Assembly (NCBI GenBank): GCA_000146465.1
Contig: CP001947.1
DNA: 64,000 bases
Strand: one strand, 5' to 3'
Below the pieces are notes generated by a model. That model was not told the origin of the DNA. It did no database searches and worked only from the letters and a program-made list of their open reading frames with translations. The position numbers and the translations under genes were made by a program. How positions within the stretch are numbered: position 1 is the stretch's first letter; each line of letters opens with the position of its first letter. Of this stretch, positions 26,934 to 49,140 are shown in pieces.

Positions 26934-28745
26934 ATGGCCAAGCCATTGCAAACCAAGATCAAGAGCTCTCGCTCAAACCAACTAGCCCAGGGTGTACTTA
27001 TAGTGATTCTGTCGATTCTTCTGTTCAATAAGAAAGCATCTATAACAAGAGATGAGACCGAGTTTATAAGAAGTCTTAAATCTTATGAACAAGGGAGATT
27101 CTGTCTCTACAAGCATCTTCCATTGCCAGGCATACTCTGCCATGGCCTGAAGAAGACCTTCTCGTATATGAATGTTCCTTTGCTATCCTTGGTATTGGAA
27201 AGCCCTAGACTGGTCAGCCTTGGACTCTTTGTTGTGACCATGCTGCAGATCTCCTGGCTATCCCAAGAAACATACAATCTGGAAGCTTCATGGATGGTTT
27301 TGGTGGTCTATATGGTCAGGTTGTTGGTCAACACTCAAACCATATTCTCCACAAACGAGATGTTTTCTATATGTTTTCTTGCAGGAGGGATTGTTCAGAT
27401 AAAAAAGAAACGCTCCTTTACCTCTGGGATTCTGATTGGGCTTTCGGTGGCGTCTAGCTGGGCATCTCTGTGTATTTTGCCTCCTCTTGCAATATTTTAC
27501 GGCATTGAACTGTTCTCATTTGCAGCGAACCCTGTAAATCGGTTAAGCAAGGCTTTTCAGAAACTTTTCAAAGGAATTATTGCATTTGCAGTCATCCCAG
27601 CTTCTATATATTTCCTGTCGTTTCTTGTGCACTATTCTATCCAGAACCAACATGCAAGAGATGCCGAAAAGTTTTCTGTCGAATTCCAAGCAACACTGAA
27701 AGGAAGCATGCACGAGCCCACAGACAAGTATCTCATGGACAGAAGCATAGTTACTATCCTAAACCAAAAACACAACGTGTATTTAAATATGAAGGAAGGC
27801 ATTCCCTCATGCTCTGGACAGAAGGCGGAAGACTCCATGTGGATGATCATTAAGGTTCATTCCAACCACTCGGGGGGAGAAGTTGAGGAGGAGGGTAGAT
27901 ACATTAATCATGGAGATCTTGTGAAGATGGTGGAGTTTGGAAGTAATATGTGTCTGAGGGTTGTGAATGAAGACACAGAAGACAAGTTTAGAAAAGTTCT
28001 TGGATTTGTCCAGGAGGACAACGAAGCAAATGAAGAAGATATATGGCAGATAATCGGAGATGGACCAGTTGTCAGCAGGAACTCGTTGGTAAGATTCAGG
28101 CACTACAAAACAGCAATGGATCTGTGTATCAGGAGCCTCCGGAGATCCGAGGAAAGCGAAGATGGAGAAAACACTATTGAAAAAGGTGTGAGTGGGTCGT
28201 TGTACAGCGATAACAAGTCTAGACTGTTCTACATCAGTGATAACAGAAACCATGACTTCTTCAAGAAGAACTTTGAGGATGGAAGGCCTAAAGAAGAAGT
28301 CCTTAACTTTCCCCAAAAGGGCTTTATGTCAAAGATGTTTGAGCATCATAGGAAACTCATAAAAACGTCCTCTGGGTGGAAATGGGGTTCACCAGGTTAC
28401 TCCATGCTACATCTTCAAAGTGGGGAGAGGTATTTGATGAAACACGACATAGTTTTCAATATCTTTACAGTTGTATCTTCATTTTTATTTCCTGTAGTAC
28501 TTCTGGCCAACCACATTTCTTGGAAGAAGTACGATAAAGGTTTTAGAGCGAGAAAAGACGATTCTTTTGTATGTGTGATGTACTTCTGTGCAGTTCTTAT
28601 GGGAAGCATCCTCGGTTTTGGCCTAGCACCCTTGGAAATGTTAAGCACCTGGATGATGCTGAACCTTGTGTTCCTTCTTGGGATGAAGCCAGCCTTGATT
28701 TTCTTTTCTGTCCTCCTCTCTACTTCGATGAGAATCTTGAGATAA
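26934..28745 (+). CDS. PMT: Dolichyl-phosphate-mannose:protein O-mannosyltransferase (PMT family)
   Basis: 603 aa. N-terminal DE motif region (ITRDETEFIRSL...KHLPLPG), multiple TM helices, a central MIR-like loop (HSNHSGGEVEEEGRYINHGDLVKMVEF), and C-terminal TM helices. Confidence 0.6.
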   Translation: MAKPLQTKIKSSRSNQLAQGVLIVILSILLFNKKASITRDETEFIRSLKSYEQGRFCLYKHLPLPGILCHGLKKTFSYMNVPLLSLVLESPRLVSLGLFVVTMLQISWLSQETYNLEASWMVLVVYMVRLLVNTQTIFSTNEMFSICFLAGGIVQIKKKRSFTSGILIGLSVASSWASLCILPPLAIFYGIELFSFAANPVNRLSKAFQKLFKGIIAFAVIPASIYFLSFLVHYSIQNQHARDAEKFSVEFQATLKGSMHEPTDKYLMDRSIVTILNQKHNVYLNMKEGIPSCSGQKAEDSMWMIIKVHSNHSGGEVEEEGRYINHGDLVKMVEFGSNMCLRVVNEDTEDKFRKVLGFVQEDNEANEEDIWQIIGDGPVVSRNSLVRFRHYKTAMDLCIRSLRRSEESEDGENTIEKGVSGSLYSDNKSRLFYISDNRNHDFFKKNFEDGRPKEEVLNFPQKGFMSKMFEHHRKLIKTSSGWKWGSPGYSMLHLQSGERYLMKHDIVFNIFTVVSSFLFPVVLLANHISWKKYDKGFRARKDDSFVCVMYFCAVLMGSILGFGLAPLEMLSTWMMLNLVFLLGMKPALIFFSVLLSTSMRILR

Positions 28746-28788: not shown

Positions 28789-29580
28789 TTATTTATGAAT
28801 ACAAAATAGATGTTTCTTGGCGTTCCAGGAGTAGTCGGGTATCAAACAATTCTCTAAGATGCAGATATTTCTATTGGAATGGTTTAGCATCTCAAAGGTC
28901 TTCTCCACGACATCTCCGTAGATTTCAAGAAATTCGTTGTGCCGCACCATAATGTGTCCCTTGCTCACAGCTATCCGAATCCCTATGGGAAGGAGATCTG
29001 TCTTCCTGTCCCCAGACTCTTCATAATAAAGATTTTTTAAATTAGAAGAAATGCACTTGATCTCTCTATAAAACTCTATAGAGAAATCAAGTGCATTTGG
29101 AATATCTGTAAACACAAACAAGAAGGAGTCTCCTTCATTTCGCACCTCTAGGCCTCCATGCTCCTTACATAATCTCCTTGCAATTTCGTCGTGAAAGACA
29201 ATTGTTCTATTCATTGCATCAGGGAAACAGTTCCAAAGGTTCGAACTGTCAACAATGTCCGTTATAACCAGGATAAGGTTTCCTTGAAGAAACCTCCTGG
29301 GGATTCTTCGAGAAATGTATTTTCTGTAACAAAGCTTCCCTCCCTTCTTTCCCTGGGGAACCTCCATCTTTTTAATCTTTAAAGGCTCTTTCCCTTGGCT
29401 CCGAGAAATAAGCATGCATTTCACTCCGTCGATTATCCCGACCTTGAAGCCACAGAACACCGACCCGAGTATCCATACCGGATTAATTGCCACCCATATC
29501 GCACATGCAATCATCTGTGTATGCATCCTAAAACTATATGCCACTAGCTGAAGAATAAGCGTCATGTTGTTCTTCAACAT
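28789..29580 (-). CDS. Membrane-anchored protein with a class III adenylate-cyclase catalytic domain of fungal Cyr1 type, at minimal length
   Basis: 263 aa. Two N-terminal TM helices, then LILVITDIVDSSNLWNCFPDAMNRTIVFHDEIARRL..GGLEVRNEGDSFLFVF and GIRIAVSKGHIMV..YGDVVEKT. These match the metal-binding D..D and the core of the Cyr1 catalytic domain. The N in the conserved (V/I)N motif is replaced by E. Confidence 0.65.
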   Translation of the reverse strand: MLKNNMTLILQLVAYSFRMHTQMIACAIWVAINPVWILGSVFCGFKVGIIDGVKCMLISRSQGKEPLKIKKMEVPQGKKGGKLCYRKYISRRIPRRFLQGNLILVITDIVDSSNLWNCFPDAMNRTIVFHDEIARRLCKEHGGLEVRNEGDSFLFVFTDIPNALDFSIEFYREIKCISSNLKNLYYEESGDRKTDLLPIGIRIAVSKGHIMVRHNEFLEIYGDVVEKTFEMLNHSNRNICILENCLIPDYSWNAKKHLFCIHK

Positions 29581-29834
29581 GGGGGCTTTTTAAATCCGTT
29601 TACTTTTATGTCCTACCGTTTTGACAGATAATTTTGGCACAATTGCAATTTTGAGAAATTAAAATTTAATCCTCTTTCAATTATACTTCACATTTTTCCA
29701 TAGGATACACTCCCTGGATAGATTGAATTCTATTCTTCGGCCAATTTCCATAATTGGAAATATAAATAACAATATTTACAAATAAGGAATAAAAAGTAGG
29801 TAGCGGTAATAACGAAAGATGTGATGGAAAATCT

Positions 29835-30731
29835 TCACTCTACCATTTTCCAACCAAACTCAACCTCCATGCCCTTTTCCCAGTTATATTCCTTTACAAC
29901 TCCCACAGTAAAGCCGATGGTTAACCTTGTCCCTTCTCCCATTACACTGCATATCTCTTCCCTAAGGCAATTGCTGTAGACAGCCTTGAGATCCTTCCCC
30001 AGAAATATAACGTTGTTCTTACTGTCGCCAACAATAATCAAGTCGTTCCATATAGTAGAGGCCTTGATATTGTACGGGAGCTCGGTGAACGAGGCTTCTC
30101 TGGTCTTGGGATCAAACACAAGAACCTTTCTGTCAAACAACGATATCACCAATGTTTCTCTAAGAGCACCCATCGATACTATAGGCTCCTTTAGAAATAC
30201 CAAGCATGGATACTCATCCATCCAAACTTCTCTCTTCCTCCTAAATATAATGTCTTCTATCTCTACCTTCTCTATACAAAATACCTTTCCATTTTCAAAC
30301 GAGAGAAATAGTCTGTCCTCACTAACCATTCCATATGTGCATATCCCATTGGTTGATTCCATCTTCGTCTTCTTAACCTCAACATCCTCATCTTCAATGC
30401 TAATTACCATAATCTCTTTACTGCCCACAATCAGGAGCCAATTCTTGTATACAACAGAGACATCTAATGGTCCTTTTGGCGTAATGTCCTTGATCTCGTA
30501 CCCAGAAAGGAACTCGACTCTGATCTTGGACAACAGTACCCATCCATCACTGAAATACTTGATATCAACTATCTCCTTGTTCAGAGCCACTTCCTTAAGA
30601 ATCTTTCTTCTTGGCCTGTTCCATACAACCAACTTGCTTGATGTTGCAACAAGAAGAATGTCCCCTTCAGAGCCAAGAGCGAGAATCTTATCTCCGTGTC
30701 TGTATGTAAACGAACCACATCTCTTGTCCAT
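29835..30731 (-). CDS. Hypothetical beta-propeller (WD-like) protein
   Basis: 298 aa with repeated beta-strand-rich blades (e.g. ILLVATSSKLVVWN, LLIVGSKEIMVISI, LIIVGDSKNNVIFLG). No family assignment. Confidence 0.4.
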   Translation of the reverse strand: MDKRCGSFTYRHGDKILALGSEGDILLVATSSKLVVWNRPRRKILKEVALNKEIVDIKYFSDGWVLLSKIRVEFLSGYEIKDITPKGPLDVSVVYKNWLLIVGSKEIMVISIEDEDVEVKKTKMESTNGICTYGMVSEDRLFLSFENGKVFCIEKVEIEDIIFRRKREVWMDEYPCLVFLKEPIVSMGALRETLVISLFDRKVLVFDPKTREASFTELPYNIKASTIWNDLIIVGDSKNNVIFLGKDLKAVYSNCLREEICSVMGEGTRLTIGFTVGVVKEYNWEKGMEVEFGWKMVE

Positions 30732-30782: not shown

Positions 30783-32285
30783 TCAGAAGTTTTTGAGGAA
30801 GTATCTAAATCCTGTCTTCAGCAGCAGAACATAAAGCAGTTCTTCGGGATCGCAGTCTTCATTAACCTTGACCATCAGGACAGAGTGTCTGGAAGAATAG
30901 AAGAAGTATCCCTTACTCCGAAGACTTGGTGTCAAGAGCTCCTCAATAAGTGGAGTTCCAAAGAGAAACGGGGGATCCGTCTTGTCCTCAACCTCCTCAA
31001 AGCCTGTTCTGGAGTAAAGGCTAAGGATAAAGTCGTAGTCTCGGAAGGTGGGCTGCAGTAACTTATGTGTTTGGAGCCTCATGTTTTCATCGAATAGGGG
31101 AATCTTCAGCCCTAGCACAGTTTTCTTGAGCCCGTTCAGCCTTTGCACAATCTTCAGAGGTGGGGTTTTTATAACTACTATGTCATGCTGGTACACCACC
31201 TCAAACCTCTTGTTCTTGTTCTCCGTAACTTTCAGCGTCTCAAGGTTGAACGAATACCCCTCAAGTCTGATTCGATGTCCCAAAAACTCTTGGAAAAATC
31301 TTCCAAACGATCTTATTTCTCTCCCAATCATCAGACATATCAGCTCCACAAGTCTGTCGTCAAAGTACACAGGAAAATATCCATGGCTGTCTAGAAAAAT
31401 CTTGGTAATCATCGTATTTTTCTTAACCACATCAGACTGCTCGCTCATAATTTCAGATATCCGCTCGTTAATTCTAAATTCCGCCTTTCGGTCTCCTTTT
31501 ATCATAATCTTAAATTTGAAGTACGATCCTCGGTACTTCAAGAGAACATGGCTATACCCAATCGCACATCGGTACTTGCTCTTCTTATAGATCAAGCAAT
31601 AGAGAGCTGTCTTTGCACAGTTAAGTGCATCCTGATCCTGCGGCCAGTTTGCATACGATCCGCAATGTAAATAGCACTCGTGGATGTTTGTAACCGAGGT
31701 GCTCATATGCATTGTACCACTGTCGATAATTTCCACGGGAAGTCTTATCTTCTTGATGTGCTCAAGAATCTCAACATATTTTGAATACTCGTCTCCCATC
31801 AGCTTGATCCCAAACACTATCTCATTCCACACAAAGTCATCCGCCTTGAATCCCTTCAGTCCATTCACTAGCAGGAAGTAAGGAATAGTGCTCTCGGGCC
31901 CGTTATAATTCGGTACAGGACTGTATCCTCTGTTGCTGAGCTTGATCCCAATAAAATGCTTGCCTTCAGAGGTATTAACATAGACATATCTCATCCGATC
32001 TCCATAGATCCGAATCACATCCTCCTTAAGCTTCTCGCTGCTGTATAGGGATTCCTTGTCCCTGAGGACTGCTTCAATGTCAAATAGATATTCCCCGTTG
32101 AGAATCGACCTGTACACCTCATCCTTCTTCCCTAGATGCATCAAAAGTACACTGTATACAGAACTTGGAGGCATGAACTCGTTTATCTTGTTCGACAATG
32201 TAAGCTCCTCAATCACCGAGTCCACATCTATTTTTATCTTATACTTTTCCAGTCTATCCTCTATGTACCTCTTGGCATTTTCCAT
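30783..32285 (-). CDS. Hypothetical protein, 500 aa
   Basis: Long ORF with ATG start, codon usage like its neighbours, and no recognisable domain. Confidence 0.4.
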   Translation of the reverse strand: MENAKRYIEDRLEKYKIKIDVDSVIEELTLSNKINEFMPPSSVYSVLLMHLGKKDEVYRSILNGEYLFDIEAVLRDKESLYSSEKLKEDVIRIYGDRMRYVYVNTSEGKHFIGIKLSNRGYSPVPNYNGPESTIPYFLLVNGLKGFKADDFVWNEIVFGIKLMGDEYSKYVEILEHIKKIRLPVEIIDSGTMHMSTSVTNIHECYLHCGSYANWPQDQDALNCAKTALYCLIYKKSKYRCAIGYSHVLLKYRGSYFKFKIMIKGDRKAEFRINERISEIMSEQSDVVKKNTMITKIFLDSHGYFPVYFDDRLVELICLMIGREIRSFGRFFQEFLGHRIRLEGYSFNLETLKVTENKNKRFEVVYQHDIVVIKTPPLKIVQRLNGLKKTVLGLKIPLFDENMRLQTHKLLQPTFRDYDFILSLYSRTGFEEVEDKTDPPFLFGTPLIEELLTPSLRSKGYFFYSSRHSVLMVKVNEDCDPEELLYVLLLKTGFRYFLKNF

Positions 32286-39523: not shown

Positions 39524-40068
39524 TCAAGACGAGACTGCTCTGTTCGACAAGTTAAGTGCCTCTGCCTGCTCGGCAAGCTCTCGGGCTCTTTGCTCATCGG
39601 CCTTTCTCTTGATTATGCTATCTTTCATGTGGAATCTGTGCTTGAAAAGATGGCCCTTTGCCTGCTTGTAAAACACTCGGAAGTCTTCCTTGGTGATCTC
39701 TCCATTGGCCCTCATCTCCTTCAGCATCTTCCTCATTGCACGAATCTTCTTCATCCATAGCTCCTTCCTTGGCATTCTTGCATTGGCCGTACCAAAGCGC
39801 TTTCCAGGCCCCATGTGCCTCCCCTTCTTCTTGGCTGCCAGGCGCTTTCGGAGTCGTCCTCTGCTGGTGTGCTTGTCCTGCTTCATAATAATCACATTGT
39901 CTTGTATCAGCTGCCTAATCTGATCCCGAGTGGTTGCTCCGTTGAGCCTCTCAATTTCGTTGTTATCCAACCAAAGCTTCTTCTTCCCACATCCTAGGAT
40001 GTCTGCTGCCAAACGCCTGACTCTCTCCTCGTTCGACCTTCAAATTAGAAATGATCCATCACTTACAT
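39524..40068 (-). CDS. RPL19: 60S ribosomal protein L19e; exon 1 is AT at 40068-40067, a 29-nt intron spans 40066-40038, and exon 2 is 40037-39524
   Basis: The ORF-track protein (TTG start) is L19e but lacks the conserved N-terminus. AAAATGTAAGTG on the minus strand gives AT|GTAAGT...TTTGAAG|G. Splicing completes ATG and yields MSNEERVRRLAADILGCGKKKLWLD, matching the L19e N-terminus. Confidence 0.8.
40038..40066 (-). other. Spliceosomal intron of RPL19, 29 nt, sitting inside the start codon: GTAAGTGATGGATCATTTCTAATTTGAAG
   Basis: GTAAGT donor begins at the G of ATG, CTAATTT branch-like element, AG acceptor, frame restored. Confidence 0.7.
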
Positions 40069-42358: not shown

Positions 42359-42643
42359 TTATTCCTCCAGAAGCATCTTTGTCAACTTCTTCATCCTCTT
42401 TCCTGCACGCTTGTGAGACCCCAATCTCTTTCGGAGAATCCTCTGTGCCTTGCTATTGTTCTTTGCCTCAATAAGCGAAATAACTTTCTTCTCAAGTGGA
42501 GAATAACCGCATAACTCCTCTGCAACTGAGGCTGCAAACATGCGTATCTTTCCAGACTCCTCGCTGGGCTTCTTGGCTTCTCTCTTCACATCGGGCCTCT
42601 TTACTGGATAACGTACTCGAACTTTCTTGAGAGCGTTCTTCAT
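42359..42643 (-). CDS. RPL36: 60S ribosomal protein L36e
   Basis: The ORF track gives a 197-aa ORF. Only the C-terminal 94 aa, from the ATG at 42643 (CAT at 42641-42643 confirmed), match L36e (..SPLEKKVISLIEAKNNSKAQRILRKRLGSHKRAGKRMKKL). Confidence 0.8.
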   Translation of the reverse strand: MKNALKKVRVRYPVKRPDVKREAKKPSEESGKIRMFAASVAEELCGYSPLEKKVISLIEAKNNSKAQRILRKRLGSHKRAGKRMKKLTKMLLEE

Positions 42644-42647
42644 TGCA

Positions 42648-42664
42648 GGGCCGAGAAAAATTTT
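42648..42664 (-). promoter_or_regulatory. AAATTT/CCC upstream module of RPL36 (AAAATTTTTCTCGGCCCTGCA before ATG)
   Basis: Read in sequence. Confidence 0.45.
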
Positions 42665-42695
42665 AATTCTACAAGGATGCAGTCCTTGCAAACCA

Positions 42696-45287
42696 ATGCT
42701 TATTGAGAGGTTCAAAGAAATAAGAAACAAGATATATGAGGATATCCATGCAGCCTCTGAGACAGACATAAGATTTATGAGGGATGCTCTGGGTCTACAA
42801 GACATGGCATATGGAAGGATCAAGACGTATTCTGCCGAGGACAGCAAGGTTCTGGCGCTTTTTACATTGAAGTACAATGTTGCAGTTCTCTTGGAGTTTA
42901 TTTCCCGAAACGGAGTCGAGCTTGGGAGCGATATATGTATGGCGCTTTGCAATGCATTGTTTGAGGAGATTCCTCAGGCATCTCCTGAATGTTCCCTGGA
43001 GATCGAGGATATAAAAGCACGAACGGACGAGGTGATTGTAGACATCCTGTGTAGCATTGGAGAGGGGATGCATGTTGAGAAGATCAAGTCATATTTGAGC
43101 TTGCAGGAGATTCCTGACGGGGTTAGCGTCAATCTTGCAGTGGTGTTTACAGCTCCATCCTGGAAGTCGTATGACCTCCGTGTGATTAATGAATTGGTTC
43201 TTGGGCCTGTTTTGGTGGAGCTGCTGAGAAGTTTTAAGGAATCTCTCCGGCCGCAAATAAAGGAAAGAATATTGGACTCTTGCAAGAAGAGACTTAGGAA
43301 TGAAAGAGATCGGTCGATTATTTACCAAATATTCTACGAGCTTAACACAGGGAAGGACATTAAGATGTTTGAAATTGAAGAAGACGAGAAAGAGGAGGCA
43401 TATGTTGGATTTATATACTCTCTAATGGTTGATGAAGAAAGTTGCTTAAAGGGATATGAGGTTTTGTCAAAGGCAGGTCTTTTTAACGACCTAAGAAAGG
43501 CTCTTGAAATGATAAATGTTCTAAGCCAGGCAGAATATAAAAGAATTAGGCCTGAAGATGAAAAGCTCATCTATCATCTTATGCAAGTGATTGAGAGGCT
43601 TGTATCTTCAGACTGGCATGGCCTTGGCTTTGTAAGGCTGTACTTCATGAGATTTGTCGAGCTGTTTCTTAACACTCTTGTAGGGCAAATTTCTCTAAGG
43701 ATAAAAGGGCAGATATACGAGATCCTATCTTCATTCATGAGAGATGGAGACTGTAAGGAAACAATCTGCGAGTTTATGAGAGGAGTTGGGATATTCAACA
43801 AAGAGGCCATCCATGCTGATTTCGAGAAAGAACTTGAGAGTAAGAACTTCTCTATGGCTCCGAGTTTCCTCCGGTTTTGTACGTTTCTTGGAAATGAGGA
43901 ATGTATCAGATTTGCCATGTACGCACTTAAAAGCGAGGATCCATCAACAGTCACCCGGTGCTTTGACGTCATCGAAAGGTTTGTGGACAAGAAAAACACA
44001 GAGGGGGGGAGTAGCAGTGAGTTTATTGTTTCTCAGCTCTCCTTGATGTCTCAACATATTCGAGTAGCAATGCTAAACAACTCACAAGTCACCAACAGGA
44101 TTTTGGAATTCCAGCTGAGCACGGGCATTGTGATTGGAGATGTGTCGATAATCAATGTGATCATAAATACACCGAACCCAAGGTTCTTTGAGTATGTAAG
44201 GCTTTTTGAGGACTTCTCATTCTTCATGAATGAAAACTTCCTTGAAAGGCTTTCTGAAGATGAAGAAGAAGGCTTCAAATATCTCTGTGAGGTGACTGCT
44301 AACAACCATGAAGCATGCAAGTTTGTGATGAACAATGAAGATTGGTTCAATGCTTATGTCAAAAACAATCCTTGTGTTCAAGAAGCAGCCATTAGGATAT
44401 ACGAGAACCTGGTTGATTATGACATCGAGAATGTGGAAGTCAGCTTTGACAGAGGGTTTATCCTTCCAGACATACCACATCGGTCAGTATTCTCGATTCT
44501 TAGCAAGTTGATTCTTTATTCGGTTTATACAAGAAAGACTTCATACTCAAGATATATCACAGACAAAGACTACAGCTTGGATAGCTCAAATATCAATGAG
44601 TACTGTTTGTATATCAAATGCAGAATAGTTGTAGGAGACAATGTTGAGGATAGGATCAAATATCTTATGAAACAGTATACAGGAATAGAAGATCTACTCG
44701 GATATTATGAGGTTTCCACTGGGATATCACTGAACATCTCCTCCTCAAAGAACCTCTTGGTAAACATAGGAAAGAAGGATACAAGCATGTTTATCAACAT
44801 GTTTAGCAATGCTAGTAACTTCGAGAAGTTTCTTTTATTCTTTTTCATTGGAGAAATTGATGCAGAGGAAGGCAAGGCAATTGAGAAAATAGTCAAAGAG
44901 GAAATCACAAGAATAATGGTATCCCAGTCCTCGAGCACATCGGAGAAAATGATTCTGAGGCAATGCTTGATAACACTCTTGTCTCTTAACAACATAGACT
45001 CGATTGTGAGGTTGATAGGCGAATATGACGACACCGATCTACTTCTAAAAGCCAACATAAGAAATCTTCTGTGCGGAGGGTCATACTTCAATAGCTCTTT
45101 GGTCATGAAAGGCCCATTGGAGCTGCAAGTCTATGCTGTTCTCCTCCTTTATTACAAATCAGTCTGGGACTTAGCTGCTCTGAAGGATTGGATCCTGTAT
45201 CTTAGGAGAGAGTGTAAGGATAACGACGACCTGGAATATCTTATAAGCGATATCAAGAGCAAAAACATACGGATTGAGCTTGAGTAA
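42696..45287 (+). CDS. Large hypothetical protein, about 864 aa, probably alpha-helical-repeat, with no family assignment
   Basis: The track ORF begins at TTG 42627, overlapping the RPL36 start. First ATG is at 42696. Long uninterrupted frame with neighbour-like composition. Confidence 0.45.
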   Translation: MLIERFKEIRNKIYEDIHAASETDIRFMRDALGLQDMAYGRIKTYSAEDSKVLALFTLKYNVAVLLEFISRNGVELGSDICMALCNALFEEIPQASPECSLEIEDIKARTDEVIVDILCSIGEGMHVEKIKSYLSLQEIPDGVSVNLAVVFTAPSWKSYDLRVINELVLGPVLVELLRSFKESLRPQIKERILDSCKKRLRNERDRSIIYQIFYELNTGKDIKMFEIEEDEKEEAYVGFIYSLMVDEESCLKGYEVLSKAGLFNDLRKALEMINVLSQAEYKRIRPEDEKLIYHLMQVIERLVSSDWHGLGFVRLYFMRFVELFLNTLVGQISLRIKGQIYEILSSFMRDGDCKETICEFMRGVGIFNKEAIHADFEKELESKNFSMAPSFLRFCTFLGNEECIRFAMYALKSEDPSTVTRCFDVIERFVDKKNTEGGSSSEFIVSQLSLMSQHIRVAMLNNSQVTNRILEFQLSTGIVIGDVSIINVIINTPNPRFFEYVRLFEDFSFFMNENFLERLSEDEEEGFKYLCEVTANNHEACKFVMNNEDWFNAYVKNNPCVQEAAIRIYENLVDYDIENVEVSFDRGFILPDIPHRSVFSILSKLILYSVYTRKTSYSRYITDKDYSLDSSNINEYCLYIKCRIVVGDNVEDRIKYLMKQYTGIEDLLGYYEVSTGISLNISSSKNLLVNIGKKDTSMFINMFSNASNFEKFLLFFFIGEIDAEEGKAIEKIVKEEITRIMVSQSSSTSEKMILRQCLITLLSLNNIDSIVRLIGEYDDTDLLLKANIRNLLCGGSYFNSSLVMKGPLELQVYAVLLLYYKSVWDLAALKDWILYLRRECKDNDDLEYLISDIKSKNIRIELE

Positions 45288-45415
45288 TAAAATATCTTAA
45301 AGCACGCGATTGCGCTTCCTGTGTAATCTACTTCTCATCAAAACTGAAACAAGAAAGAGGCCGAAGCTATTTATTCAAGAAGGGCTTGACTTCCGTGCAG
45401 GCCCGTGGGTCTGGC

Positions 45416-45637
45416 TCAAGGCTTGCTTGTATTCTCTTGCTTCTTGATCTCTCTCTGCTTCTGCCGCTCCCTTAAGAAGTTCCTCTTCTTTGTCTTTAAG
45501 ATCTTGATCTTGCTAAGGAGGCTCTTTCTTTCCTCCTGCTTCTGCTGCTTTATTCTCAGCCTCTGCTTGAAGGAGAGGACTGTATTGGGATCTTTTTGTT
45601 TCTTCTCCTTCCATACCTTCAAGTAAGTTTTGCTCAT
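45416..45637 (-). CDS. Small lysine-rich coiled-coil protein, 74 aa, possibly Cgr1-like nucleolar protein
   Basis: MSKTYLKVWKEKKQKDPNTVLSFKQRLRIKQQKQEERK... from the ATG at 45637. The longer track ORF (to 45868) is antisense to the Sm-like gene. Confidence 0.4.
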   Translation of the reverse strand: MSKTYLKVWKEKKQKDPNTVLSFKQRLRIKQQKQEERKSLLSKIKILKTKKRNFLRERQKQREIKKQENTSKP

Positions 45638-45721
45638 TGCTGCGGTTCCTTGAAAAATATTTTTATCGTTAAGACATTCAAGCCAAAATAGTTGTGAGGG
45701 TGGAAAAGCCCTTAATTCGAA

Positions 45722-45937
45722 ATGGACAACACCCTGTACACAGCCTTTATAGGAAAGGCTGTTAAGGTCAAGATTTGCGACGGCTCTGAGTTTAGAGGAA
45801 CATCGGCAGCAATAGATGCATATCTCAACATATCCTTGGAGTCTGTATTCTACCTTCAGAAAGGCCAAGAGCCCAGATATTATTCCTCTCTATTCATCAA
45901 AGGATCGTATATCGACCACATAGCATTGGATGTATGA
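45722..45937 (+). CDS. Sm-like protein (LSm/SmF-type Sm fold)
   Basis: 71 aa. Sm1/Sm2 pattern FIGKAVKVKICDGSEFRGTSAAIDAYLNISLE...FIKGSYIDHIA. Confidence 0.7.
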   Translation: MDNTLYTAFIGKAVKVKICDGSEFRGTSAAIDAYLNISLESVFYLQKGQEPRYYSSLFIKGSYIDHIALDV

Positions 45938-45980
45938 GGTTTTCAGGCCGAATAGGCAAGTCTTCTATCTAAAATGAAGT

Positions 45981-46418
45981 TTATAAGGAAGGTTTATTTC
46001 TTTTGATCTTACAGACTATCTTACTGCTCATAGCCTGGATGTTATGCCGTATGGACTCGATGTCATTCATGATCCTTAGGGTTTCTCTACGATACTCCGT
46101 AAGAAGTTTTCCTAAGTACTCGATCTTCATCATTAGATTCTCACTTTTACTATCAACAGCCTCGTGGCGGAGAAGATGTTTCTTAAGAGGATCGCTTCGT
46201 GTATAATCCTTCCCACACAAATGACACTCGAAGGGCCGTTCTCCCGTATGTCTCCGTGCATGGGCAAGCAGTGCGTGCTTACTAACCTGGACTTCTCCAT
46301 ATCTCGGACAATCTTTCCACAAGCACCTAGCCTCCTCGTCCTTTTCTATGTGGGAGAGCAGATGACCTCTCACATTATCTTCGATGTCTTTCTGACACTC
46401 CTCCCATTCACATCTCAT
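45981..46418 (-). CDS. C2H2 zinc-finger protein
   Basis: 145 aa with three to four C2H2 units (CxxC...HxxxH), e.g. FECHLCGKDYTRSDPLKKHLLRH. Confidence 0.65.
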   Translation of the reverse strand: MRCEWEECQKDIEDNVRGHLLSHIEKDEEARCLWKDCPRYGEVQVSKHALLAHARRHTGERPFECHLCGKDYTRSDPLKKHLLRHEAVDSKSENLMMKIEYLGKLLTEYRRETLRIMNDIESIRHNIQAMSSKIVCKIKRNKPSL

Positions 46419-46493
46419 TGCTTAGGAGGGCTACCATGGGCAAAAGCTCTTCTCCAAAAGGAAAACAACATTTTAGCTTTATCATCATATAGA

Positions 46494-47411
46494 TCATGTT
46501 CTGTATAGATTATTGTATTTCTTGAAAGCTTGGGCTTCAGAATCATACTCGCCTAGGCATGCTCGCTCCCTAGCCTCTTGGATTCTTTGCTTGAGTAGTC
46601 GAATCCTTGTTCTGTCAAACATAATGTCTCCAATAGTTCCGCTTGCACAAACCACTCCATCCTTCGGAGATTTTCCATGTCTATCCAGTATCTTCCTACC
46701 CATCTTCTTCCTTGCTTTCCTGGAACTGTTCTTCATGAGCAAACAAAATGTTTCGAGCAAGCTGCACTCCACATCCTCCAGATCCCTTTCCAGCTTGTTT
46801 CTCTTGCCATAAAGCTTGCACAATGCCTCAAGTAGATGTAGCTCTTTCCACATCCTTTCGACCTTCTCCTTCGAGAGCTCTTCACTTCTTCTACTTCTCC
46901 TACTAGGCTTAATAATTCTCTTGCGGAAGCACACATAAGCAAGAGGATTGAATTTCTCGTTTCTGATTAGTATTCTGGATGCAACCATCCTGGAGAACTT
47001 TTCCTTGCCTTCTAAAAGGTCTTGCTTGTTGGAGATCGTAGACAGTATCCCATAAAACTGCTTTTCATCCACTCCAGACTCCTTGCATATTCTCCTATCT
47101 TCGTTGTTCATCAAGTACTCGTTCTCGGCATCTCCAATCCATTCGACATATTTGCGCTTGGGAACATATTTGCCATAAATTTCTCGTGCCGGGTTATCCA
47201 CTTTAGTTATCACCGGAATCGGGATGTTTCCCTTCTCTCCCTCCATTATCTTTTTCAGGTGGAGCTCTTTCTCTTCATCGGCTTCCATCCCTGTGTCAAG
47301 CGACGGAGGAACATACTCCTCCAAGGAAGACACGTCGAAGGACCCGGGTTTGTAAATAGCATATGGCAAGCCATTGTCTATTTTCACATTTCTCTTTCTC
47401 TTGTATACCAT
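46494..47411 (-). CDS. EPL1: Enhancer-of-polycomb-like protein (Epl1/EPC, NuA4 subunit)
   Basis: EPcA-like block IPIPVITKVDNPAREIYGKYVPKRKYVEWIGDAENEYLMNNEDRRICKESG. First ATG at 47411 (track TTG at 47447). Confidence 0.55.
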   Translation of the reverse strand: MVYKRKRNVKIDNGLPYAIYKPGSFDVSSLEEYVPPSLDTGMEADEEKELHLKKIMEGEKGNIPIPVITKVDNPAREIYGKYVPKRKYVEWIGDAENEYLMNNEDRRICKESGVDEKQFYGILSTISNKQDLLEGKEKFSRMVASRILIRNEKFNPLAYVCFRKRIIKPSRRSRRSEELSKEKVERMWKELHLLEALCKLYGKRNKLERDLEDVECSLLETFCLLMKNSSRKARKKMGRKILDRHGKSPKDGVVCASGTIGDIMFDRTRIRLLKQRIQEARERACLGEYDSEAQAFKKYNNLYRT

Positions 47412-47498
47412 GGATAATTTTTCAGAGACCACGTTTAAGCACAACAAATTGAGTTTATTGGGAGAGAATATAGGGCCGGAAGTCTTTTGGGCCCTTGA

Positions 47499-48146
47499 AT
47501 GGAGAGAGCAATAGAGCTGGTGATGGAGGAGCTAGGAAGTACTCACGACTCTGAATGCATAAGGAATTGGTACTTCTCGTATCTTCAAAGGAAAGAGAGC
47601 CCAAAAAGCAAGTTCAAGGATGTTCTATCGATTATCAAGGCAGACATTGAAGATATCAAGGTGCTGGAATCGACGGTCATGCTCTTTGAAATTTCACAAG
47701 AGACAGCAGATGAGATTTCCTTGAAAGATGTGGCCCATTCTTACGAGAATTCGATGGAGATCATCTCGATTTTGTCTTTATACAATTCTATCTTCCCTAT
47801 AATTCAAAGATGCATCAGGAACGAGAGTGTTGGAAGCCGAGTCTCTGATCTCTACAATGAGGTTAGTATGCATTTGAATGGGCCACGGGAAGGATCCCGA
47901 GAAGTCCTGGAAGGGAGAAGGAGGTTTTTCTTTGATTTCTATATTCCTGTTGAGATATACTTTATGTCTGTGGGAAAGAACTATGAAATGAAAGAGAAGG
48001 AGAAGAAGTTCGTCGAAATGTATTTGACTAAGAAGAAGCTGGATAAGAAGGGTTTGGCCTATGGAGACAAATTTTATGAGGAGATGTCGTGCGGGGACGA
48101 AAAGGTTTCCAAGGCATTAAAATTTCTCTTTGAAGAGGTTTATTAG
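47499..48146 (+). CDS. Hypothetical protein
   Basis: 215-aa ORF with ATG start and no recognised domain. Confidence 0.4.
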   Translation: MERAIELVMEELGSTHDSECIRNWYFSYLQRKESPKSKFKDVLSIIKADIEDIKVLESTVMLFEISQETADEISLKDVAHSYENSMEIISILSLYNSIFPIIQRCIRNESVGSRVSDLYNEVSMHLNGPREGSREVLEGRRRFFFDFYIPVEIYFMSVGKNYEMKEKEKKFVEMYLTKKKLDKKGLAYGDKFYEEMSCGDEKVSKALKFLFEEVY

Positions 48147-48201
48147 ATTGGAAAATTGCAAGATAGTATAGATGTTGAAAATCCGGATGATTTTTTGACC
48201 C

Positions 48202-49140
48202 ATGACGATGGAAATTAATAATAAGGAGGATGAAAATCTCTCTAGCTTTAAAAGGAATCTCAGGAAGATGATTCAACTGGAGGAGGAGGCCAAGAAGAGG
48301 AGAGAAGATCAAAGGTCCCGGAAGCTGGTCTCTATCAGGGTTGGGAAGATTGAGGGAATGGGAGAGTCACCTGAAAGAAAATTTGTTCAGGACAGGAAAA
48401 GGGTATTTGAAGAGCCAAAGGTGGAATATGAAGGAGAAGGAAAAGTAAGAGAGAGGATAGAAAGTTTCAGCAAGAAGGATGATGGTGTGGACGAAAGGAT
48501 TTTAGGCGAAGAAGAAAAGAAGGGTTTTGTTTATGATAAAGACCATGGAAGGAATGGAGAAGAGGCCCAAAACAGCACCAATGCTGAGAGGAAGGGTAGT
48601 GAGAGCCTGAAGATTGTAGAAGAATGTAAGATAAGTGTCAACAGAGAGGTATTGGAATCTGGACCTAAATATAAAGACGAAGAAGCAGAGGATGAATGCT
48701 TCAAAGAGATTTCCGTTGAAGACATCAAAAAGAGCCTCCTTGCAGAATTAGATTCGGAGAGGGAAAGTGAAGCAGATATCATAAGTACTGTGATGAAGTC
48801 TGAAAACTCAGCACCTTCGCAGCAGGAAGTTATATATGTTGACAGAGAAAGTAGTTCTTTGGAAACAGAAAAGAACCCATATAACATAGGGTGTAATGTA
48901 TATGCTTACGACATCCACTATAAGATCTCTGATCTGTCTTGGGGGAACCCATCTGGACATATAACTCCTAATGAAAAAGAACCATCGATTAGTAGCAACA
49001 AAAGTCCTGTAAGGGAACATGGAGACGTTAATCTGGAGGATGGACCTGTAACTTACCAAGATCTTGACGAGGAAAAGGAGGAGAAGGGATGGTTTTCTTT
49101 GATATTTGAGTCCGTTTTTTCTATCTGCTGTGGTAAGTAG
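48202..49140 (+). CDS. Hypothetical acidic (E/K-rich) protein
   Basis: 312-aa ORF with ATG start and a low-complexity charged sequence. Confidence 0.4.
   Translation: MTMEINNKEDENLSSFKRNLRKMIQLEEEAKKRREDQRSRKLVSIRVGKIEGMGESPERKFVQDRKRVFEEPKVEYEGEGKVRERIESFSKKDDGVDERILGEEEKKGFVYDKDHGRNGEEAQNSTNAERKGSESLKIVEECKISVNREVLESGPKYKDEEAEDECFKEISVEDIKKSLLAELDSERESEADIISTVMKSENSAPSQQEVIYVDRESSSLETEKNPYNIGCNVYAYDIHYKISDLSWGNPSGHITPNEKEPSISSNKSPVREHGDVNLEDGPVTYQDLDEEKEEKGWFSLIFESVFSICCGK

Follow-up and report, generated by a model that had tools for sequence, protein, structure and literature searches.

A small microsporidian cyclase homology domain protein that retains one half of the class III active site

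In fungi, adenylate cyclase (Cyr1/Cdc35) is a protein of ~1700-2000 aa in which a G-alpha-binding/RA region, leucine-rich repeats (LRR) and a PP2C domain accompany the catalytic cyclase homology domain (CHD). Fungal Cyr1 CHDs are sister to the CHDs of Leishmania and Trypanosoma with 100% bootstrap, and the microsporidian Encephalitozoon cuniculi has no LRR-type cyclase (PMC2939053). The supplementary tables examined from that study list no E. cuniculi entry for the Pfam cyclase model PF00211. Here, we analysed a 64,000-nt stretch of Encephalitozoon intestinalis DNA (contig CP001947.1 of assembly GCA_000146465.1; hereafter, the window), which encodes a 263-aa protein with a CHD. One half of the class III active site is intact in this protein; the other half is gone. 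The gene is the following:

28789..29580, minus strand: complete open reading frame (ORF), ATG to TAA, 263 aa; stop codon TAA at 28789-28791; E. intestinalis ADM11696.1

A first-pass annotation of the window, made from the sequence alone, had placed a 263-aa protein of a reduced parasite genome at this position. The ORF lies exactly there, and the genome is indeed that of a reduced parasite. Its product is 100% identical to ADM11696.1 of E. intestinalis ATCC 50506, labelled 'class 3 adenyl cyclase-like protein' in the database. The orthologues of E. romaleae, E. hellem and E. cuniculi show 60%, 56% and 53% identity, respectively. That of E. cuniculi is ECU06_0960, annotated as 'similarity to the class 3 of adenyl cyclases Y891_MYCTU', and the 'class 3 adenyl cyclase-like' label is found in E. 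intestinalis, E. romaleae, E. cuniculi and V. ceranae. Both the gene and its cyclase-like name are already in databases, and in this respect the first-pass annotation is no new discovery. In the literature we found no study of ECU06_0960 and nothing functional on microsporidian cyclases. What appears to be undescribed in the searchable literature is the family-wide erosion of half of the active site, the stepwise reduction from an LRR-bearing form and a His/Cys motif specific to one clade.

The domain itself occupies the C-terminal part of the protein:

28792..29283, minus strand: residues 100-263, class III CHD, truncated, with only the first strand of the canonical beta7-beta8 hairpin left (Pfam, profile, fold and hhalign evidence)

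There is solid evidence that this is a genuine class III CHD. When searched alone, the E. intestinalis protein scores 20.3 bits against PF00211 (E=4.4e-4; profile positions 10-133 of 183), just below the gathering cut-off of 21.9 bits. The same model is matched by 11/11 close orthologues, with a best E=1.2e-11. A profile of the family reaches the solved Trypanosoma brucei GRESAG4.1 and GRESAG4.3 with E=2e-9 and 4e-9, as well as Mycobacterium avium Ma1120 with E ~1.5e-7, and an exhaustive HMMER search recovered 7,315 CHD proteins at E<=1e-3. Aligned by hhalign to a canonical-CHD alignment, the family gives a probability of 99.5% and E=7.7e-23 over 145 columns. In the AlphaFold (AF2) model, the predicted local distance difference test (pLDDT) score is 68 overall and ~80-90 over residues 100-263. 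Foldseek with this model returned 146 PDB matches at E<=1e-3, headed by 1fx4 and 1fx2, and the best 50 were all class III cyclases; the predicted structure has the palm-like beta-alpha-beta-beta-alpha-beta fold of a CHD. Orthologues, family profile, hhalign and fold search agree on the CHD proposed in the first-pass annotation, in spite of the sub-threshold score of the query. The motif string quoted there is literally in the sequence (ITDIVDSSNLWNCFPDAMNRTIVFHDEIARRLCKEHGGLEVRNEGDSF) and agrees with the consensus of Cyr1/kinetoplastid-type CHDs.

The description of a stand-alone catalytic domain was also borne out. A Pfam scan of the E. intestinalis protein found no further domain and no match to LRR, PP2C or RA/G-alpha-binding models; only ~100 of the 263 residues lie outside the CHD. 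A Pfam PRANC match (E=0.011) was under the cut-off and was dismissed as chance. Among the four Encephalitozoon species, identity is 79% in the N-half of the domain (100-175), 61% in its C-half (198-263) and 31-41% in the insert and the linker. As judged from these alignments, the strongest constraint falls on the metal/phosphate-binding N-half of the CHD.

Further information about the active site was obtained from a MAFFT L-INS-i alignment of 28 small microsporidian orthologues and 14 canonical CHDs, in which the six classical positions were tabulated. Counts refer to the 28 orthologues:

29257..29259, minus strand: codon GAC of D108, first metal-binding Asp, in the TDI motif; conserved in 28/28
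29128..29130, minus strand: codon GAC of D151, second metal-binding Asp, in the NEGDSF motif; conserved in 28/28
29140..29142, minus strand: codon of R147, at the canonical substrate-specifying Lys position; Lys in 0/28 (Arg 15, Ala 8, Gly 2, Ser 2, Met 1)
28924..28926, minus strand: codon of E219, at the canonical substrate-specifying Asp position; Asp in 1/28 (Lys 13, Glu 5, Gly 4, among others)
28903..28905, minus strand: codon of E226, at the canonical transition-state Asn position; Asn in 4/28
28891..28893, minus strand: codon of E230, at the canonical transition-state Arg position; Arg in 2/28

In a canonical homodimeric cyclase, the purine is specified by Lys and Asp (or Thr), and the transition-state Asn and Arg belong to helix alpha4. 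Structures anchor the mapping, as DYYG..PNMAAR is included when the canonical profile is aligned with the solved T. brucei enzymes (1fx2/1fx4, E ~1e-46). It was reproduced independently by hhalign, which sets FLEIYGDVVEKTFEM against RMDYFGAAINESARV. The first-pass annotation had noticed that the conserved VN motif reads VE, and both methods place V225-E226 at the transition-state Asn position. It had also named the loss of both metal-binding Asp residues as one of two results that would refute its reading; both are retained. The motifs NEGDSF and TDIxxST are near-invariant among the microsporidian orthologues, and R/K202 is present in 28/28. Residue by residue, the alignment indicates that a C1-like half-site is intact (the Asp pair, the phosphate loop TDIxxST and the Arg of beta4) and that the C2-like half is gone. 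The replaced Asn makes the suspicion of a pseudo-cyclase, raised in the first-pass annotation, legitimate. That annotation understated the erosion, which takes four of the six catalytic residues and the beta7-beta8 hairpin throughout the family.

The division of residues between C1 and C2 is known from established structural work on mammalian membrane cyclases. Metal-binding Asp kept and partner-side residues lost is the exact pattern of a C1 domain, and it would fit an obligate heterodimer in which a highly divergent C2-like CHD encoded elsewhere in the genome supplies Lys, Asp, Asn and Arg, much as in mammalian membrane cyclases. Astathelohania and Nosema bombycis have two paralogues each, which would also suit such a pair. 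These paralogues of other genera are, however, also devoid of Asn and Arg, and no Encephalitozoon paralogue surfaced in homology searches. In the 64-kb window, six-frame hidden Markov model (HMM) scans with microsporidian and canonical CHD models returned the target ORF only, with no second CHD. We consider a heterodimer improbable.

We lean instead, tentatively, to the reading that the protein is a slow, non-canonical adenylyl cyclase and most likely the only source of cyclic AMP (cAMP) in the cell, and give it close to an even chance. This reading is favoured because the Asp pair is kept in 28/28 divergent species, a basic residue is swapped between two positions, phosphodiesterase and PKA are kept and no other cyclase has been reported. 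The swap follows clades: R147 is found in one clade, while the other has K219 with Ala, Gly or Ser at 147. Since 27/28 orthologues retain a basic residue at 147 or 219, the purine pocket may still be under selection. In such an enzyme, a head-to-tail homodimer, as in other single-CHD proteins, would form two symmetric sites still able to bind metal-ATP. Catalysis would be assisted by residues other than the classical Asn and Arg, the candidates being the family-invariant N148, E149 and H234 and the basic residue at 147 or 219. The cAMP produced would feed the PKA and the class I phosphodiesterase kept by Encephalitozoon. A very low turnover could suffice in a cell of ~femtolitre volume, where a few hundred molecules would make micromolar cAMP; this is an argument and not evidence. 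The N-terminal helical hairpin might tether or dimerise the protein.

The signalling context is partly documented. E. cuniculi has a diverged PKA catalytic subunit and two RIIa-type homologues of the PKA regulatory subunit, CAD24891.1 and CAD25013.1 (PMC2078597). PKA was found in Nosema species and not in E. bieneusi (PMC4280135), and a class I phosphodiesterase of E. cuniculi appears in a published phosphodiesterase tree (PMC4561360). Pfam scans of the 44 ORFs of the window found no PKA, phosphodiesterase or cyclic nucleotide-binding protein.

Several observations weigh against an active enzyme. The full catalytic set is present in 0/28 microsporidian orthologues, against 12/14 of the canonical references. 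The beta7-beta8 hairpin (G.x.LKG.../KGKG), which carries a phosphate-contacting Lys in canonical enzymes, is absent. In class III cyclase mutagenesis, loss of Asn or Arg alone costs ~30-1000-fold in kcat. Within Encephalitozoon, the lost positions vary (R/R/M/R at 147, E/T/T/T at 226 and E/G/E/R at 230), and therefore they seem to be under relaxed constraint: on the alignment, they look unconstrained and not rewired. The PKA of kinetoplastids is cAMP-independent. In E. cuniculi, the PKA regulatory homologues were detected by the RIIa docking-domain model PF02197 (PMC2078597). This model is not indicative of cAMP binding and is the sole basis for a cAMP-binding regulatory subunit. Finally, a literature search found no biochemical or expression data for the E. 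intestinalis protein.

These points would be accommodated by a pseudo-cyclase, a protein with the CHD fold that binds metal-nucleotide through its remaining half-site, does not cyclise it and acts as an ATP/metal sensor, scaffold or regulator. The cyclic nucleotide for phosphodiesterase and PKA would then be host-derived, or both would work without cAMP. We see here a substantial possibility, itself somewhat short of even, favoured because four catalytic residues and the hairpin Lys are lost throughout the family and the lost positions vary freely among congeners. The C-half of the CHD is far less constrained than the N-half, and the gene is fast-evolving, as described below, which would also suit an inactive protein. 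Degenerate CHD sites, on the other hand, usually lose the metal-binding Asp pair, as in the C2 domain of transmembrane adenylyl cyclases and in soluble guanylyl cyclase. Here, both Asp are invariant, and NEGDSF and TDIxxST nearly so, across very divergent species. Moreover, a class I phosphodiesterase and PKA are retained in a ~2000-gene genome for which no other cyclase has been reported. The evidence for a non-canonical cyclase and for a pseudo-cyclase is almost even, and sequence cannot separate the two.

The C-terminus of the protein provides a further peculiarity. Its end, ...FCIHK, aligns with the start of the canonical strand beta7, and a set of His and Cys residues lies just before it:

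28795..28881, minus strand: span with H234 (26/28) and C240, C260 and H262 (28/28 each), near-invariant and family-specific in the alignment

These four residues are absent from canonical CHDs and limited to the C-terminally truncated clade. They may form a Cys2His2 metal site or a structural clip that stabilises the shortened C-terminus. Together with the retained basic residue, the conserved quartet argues against simple decay of the domain. It is tempting to go further and propose a new catalytic solution, in which a zinc site of H234, C240, C260 and H262 replaces the hairpin and, with N148/E149 and R147 or K219, rebuilds the second half-site. A domain of ~165 residues would then still make cAMP and be the only cAMP source of these parasites. 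We regard this as unlikely; if true, it would be the smallest and most divergent functional class III cyclase.

Regarding the origin of the protein, small orthologues occur in Ordospora, Vairimorpha ceranae, Nosema bombycis and Pancytospora, and longer intermediate forms in Hamiltosporidium, Astathelohania (two paralogues) and Dictyocoela. Enterocytozoon-like members of the family are also present in SRA assemblies. The intermediate forms keep the W-[PN] insert and the beta7-beta8 hairpin of Cyr1/kinetoplastid-type CHDs and have already lost Asn and Arg. The early-branching Nematocida displodere has a 1288-aa protein, NEDG_00199, which combines LRR and CHD; it retains Lys, Asp and Arg and has Ile in place of Asn. 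A homology search seeded with its CHD returned environmental CHDs only and no fungal Cyr1. KTEGD and W-P motifs are found in canonical relatives. The E. intestinalis CHD matches this Cyr1/kinetoplastid signature in EGD and in the N-half consensus, but has R-N in place of K-T and has lost the W-P insert. We infer that the domain belongs to the eukaryotic Cyr1/kinetoplastid-type subclass, and the 'Cyr1-type' label of the first-pass annotation is reasonable on indirect evidence.

In a neighbour-joining tree of 192 CHDs (175 columns, 300 bootstraps), the small and intermediate microsporidian proteins form a clade with 73% support, and this clade joins the Nematocida LRR-CHD protein with 68%. Support is only moderate, since long branches were compared by a distance method and the choice of outgroups was biased to top matches. 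Because the small orthologues group with the Nematocida protein, we favour descent from a Cyr1-like ancestor, and vertical descent from an LRR-bearing Cyr1-like adenylate cyclase by domain loss seems most likely. The most economical reading of the alignment would have the regulatory domains lost first, the transition-state residues next, and then both the insert and the hairpin at the C-terminus, while the His/Cys motif was gained. The choice between vertical and horizontal inheritance, left to phylogeny by the first-pass annotation, thus falls on the vertical side with that moderate support.

A bacterial origin by horizontal transfer is hinted at by the 'similarity to Y891_MYCTU' of the E. 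cuniculi annotation, and the small mycobacterial CHDs Ma1120 and Rv1900c are among the PDB matches. Yet the kinetoplastid enzymes score best, the W-P insert and KxEGD signature of the eukaryote type are present in the intermediate microsporidian homologues, and the family and the Nematocida LRR+CHD protein fall in one clade. A scan of 185,579 bacterial and archaeal genomes with family-specific patterns gave 27 pattern matches, of which tblastn confirmed 0, a search that excludes close relatives only. Horizontal transfer is in our view very improbable.

Outside Microsporidia, the best whole-protein scores belong to P0015-P0020, which are 1400-2400 aa long and contain 3-5 tandem cyclase domains. 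This multi-CHD architecture is unusual, and some of the proteins have a C-terminal fibronectin type III domain; at least one, P0016 of Diplonema japonicum, is from a diplonemid. Diplonemid multi-CHD proteins were rejected as closest relatives, their whole-protein scores being inflated by the 3-5 domains that each contains. Single-domain scores reach a plateau at ~85-95 bits, with no sharp outgroup.

The local gene order is the same throughout as on chromosome VI of E. cuniculi: TCP1 chaperonin, two genes of 500 and 298 aa, the CHD gene, a convergent gene of 601/603 aa, thiolase and P4-ATPase. The CHD gene, 53% identical to its E. cuniculi counterpart, is among the faster-evolving genes of this region, where four of five neighbours are 64-87% identical. 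Synonymous sites are saturated at the 53-60% amino-acid identity that separates the orthologues. The fast evolution and the sub-threshold Pfam score, taken alone, might suggest a spurious or decaying ORF without function. This is effectively refuted by conservation: the syntenic position in E. cuniculi holds an intact ORF of equal length, and more than 28 orthologues with invariant motifs are found across the phylum. The assignment of the start codon is supported by a short upstream element:

29581..29596, minus strand: the 16 nt directly 5' of the ATG, ATTTAAAAAGCCCCC, a start-proximal signal by resemblance

AAATTT-like and CCC-like start-proximal signals in Encephalitozoon genes were reportedly described by Peyretaillade et al. 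in 2009. ATTTAAAAAGCCCCC resembles signals of this kind, in favour of the ATG assignment.

The N-terminal third of the protein comprises two further regions:

29407..29580, minus strand: residues 1-58, moderately hydrophobic helical hairpin with the conserved P34 as hinge (AF2 model and hydropathy)
29284..29406, minus strand: residues 59-99, poorly conserved linker, predicted disordered, pLDDT ~26-48 (AF2 and alignment)

In the AF2 model, the helices span residues 3-32 and 34-56, the second with low confidence, and P34 is invariant. The linker terminates in the conserved CYxKYxPQxIxKRFL, which leads into the CHD. The first-pass annotation had seen here two N-terminal transmembrane helices that anchor the protein in the membrane, and this claim is weak. 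The most hydrophobic 19-mer (residues 24-42; Kyte-Doolittle mean 1.95) spans the hinge between the helices at P34, and R18, H20, K46, D51 and K54 lie inside the helices. The N-terminal region of the orthologues also bears charged residues. The maximal 19-residue Kyte-Doolittle mean is below the threshold of 1.6 in about half of 30 family members, and in none of these 30 does the insertion energy of a segment, summed on the Hessa scale, come to <=0 (values from +1.2 to +14 kcal/mol). A membrane anchor is not established by their hydropathy. Equally plausible is a membrane hairpin of peripheral or monotopic type, or an element for dimerisation.

Other features of the window deserve mention. Convergent with the CHD gene, with 43 bp between the stop codons, the plus-strand gene at 26934-28745 encodes a 603-aa protein with multiple hydrophobic segments, 64% identical to its E. 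cuniculi orthologue. Its weak, sub-threshold PIG-U and MIR matches suggest a PMT-like membrane glycosyltransferase. Just upstream of the CHD gene, 29835-30731 and 30783-32285, both on the minus strand, are the conserved syntenic genes of 298 and 500 aa. Pfam assigns no domain to their products with confidence and gives only weak hints of beta-propeller/Utp21 and Nrap, and the 298-aa protein, 52% identical to that of E. cuniculi, evolves as fast as the CHD protein.

Short introns in ribosomal protein genes are known in Encephalitozoon, and the gene of ribosomal protein L19e (39524-40068, minus strand) has an apparent 29-nt intron of that type, which splits the start codon. Its ATG (40068-40066) overlaps GTAAGT, and positions 40066-40038 (GTAAGTGATGGATCATTTCTAATTTGAAG) make up the putative intron. 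After splicing, the product starts MSNEERVRRLAADILGCGKK, which restores the N-terminus missing from the ORF call and from the Pfam match (profile position 8 onward). From 42627 to 49140 there is a run of five ORFs (886, 150, 317, 215 and 312 aa) with no Pfam match at E<=1e-4, probably microsporidia-specific proteins. The TTG start of the 886-aa ORF overlaps the L36e gene on the opposite strand, and its true start is probably further downstream. Over the window (1-64000), GC skew flips with gene orientation: it is strongly negative in the minus-strand gene regions at 1-14 kb and 30-40 kb, and positive in the plus-strand region at 14-24 kb. This pattern points to an excess of G over C on coding strands, not to a replication signal.

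The genomes of Microsporidia are among the smallest of eukaryotes, and the triggers of spore germination and of the transitions between stages are poorly understood. These parasites have retained PKA and a phosphodiesterase for cyclic nucleotides, yet their only cyclase-like protein is without most of the textbook catalytic residues. If active, the protein would define a class III cyclase that is both minimal and non-canonical, and would offer a drug target specific to the parasite and without close host counterpart. If inactive, these would be eukaryotes with cAMP effectors and no cyclase, using host-derived cAMP or a cAMP-independent PKA as in trypanosomatids. In either case, the series from Nematocida through Hamiltosporidium and Dictyocoela to Encephalitozoon would illustrate a clean stepwise erosion of domains and active site from a Cyr1-like ancestor.

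Compared with known systems, the E. intestinalis CHD finds its best solved match, both in sequence and in fold, in T. brucei GRESAG4.1/4.3 (1FX2, 1FX4). They have in common the N-half subclass signature FTDIxxSTxLW...P..M...H...YEVKTxGDSF. GRESAG4 differs from the microsporidian protein in having all six catalytic residues (...VKTVGD..., DYYG..PNMAAR), a delta-subdomain with a long insert and the beta7-beta8 hairpin, as well as a large receptor domain outside the cell and a single true transmembrane helix. The C1 domain of mammalian membrane adenylyl cyclases resembles the microsporidian CHD in keeping the Asp pair and the phosphate loop and in the absence of the Lys/Asp/Asn/Arg side; it differs in having its obligatory C2 partner in the same polypeptide, whereas no partner is known for the microsporidian domain. 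The small mycobacterial CHDs (Ma1120/Rv1120c and Rv1900c, and Rv0891c in the E. cuniculi annotation) are of comparable minimal size and match the fold of the E. intestinalis model with a target-normalised TM-score up to 0.69. They keep a functional or near-functional catalytic set (Ma1120 was crystallised with ATP analogues) and show no specific kinship to the microsporidian family. The Cyr1/Cdc35 lineage of fungi is probably ancestral to this family; relative to it, the microsporidian protein is ~8-fold smaller, is devoid of RA, LRR and PP2C, has lost Lys, Asp, Asn and Arg, and is truncated at its C-terminus. The closest long-form microsporidian relative of the small proteins is N. displodere NEDG_00199, at the 68% bootstrap given above, which, unlike them, keeps Lys, Asp, Arg, the W-x insert, the beta7-beta8 hairpin and the LRRs.

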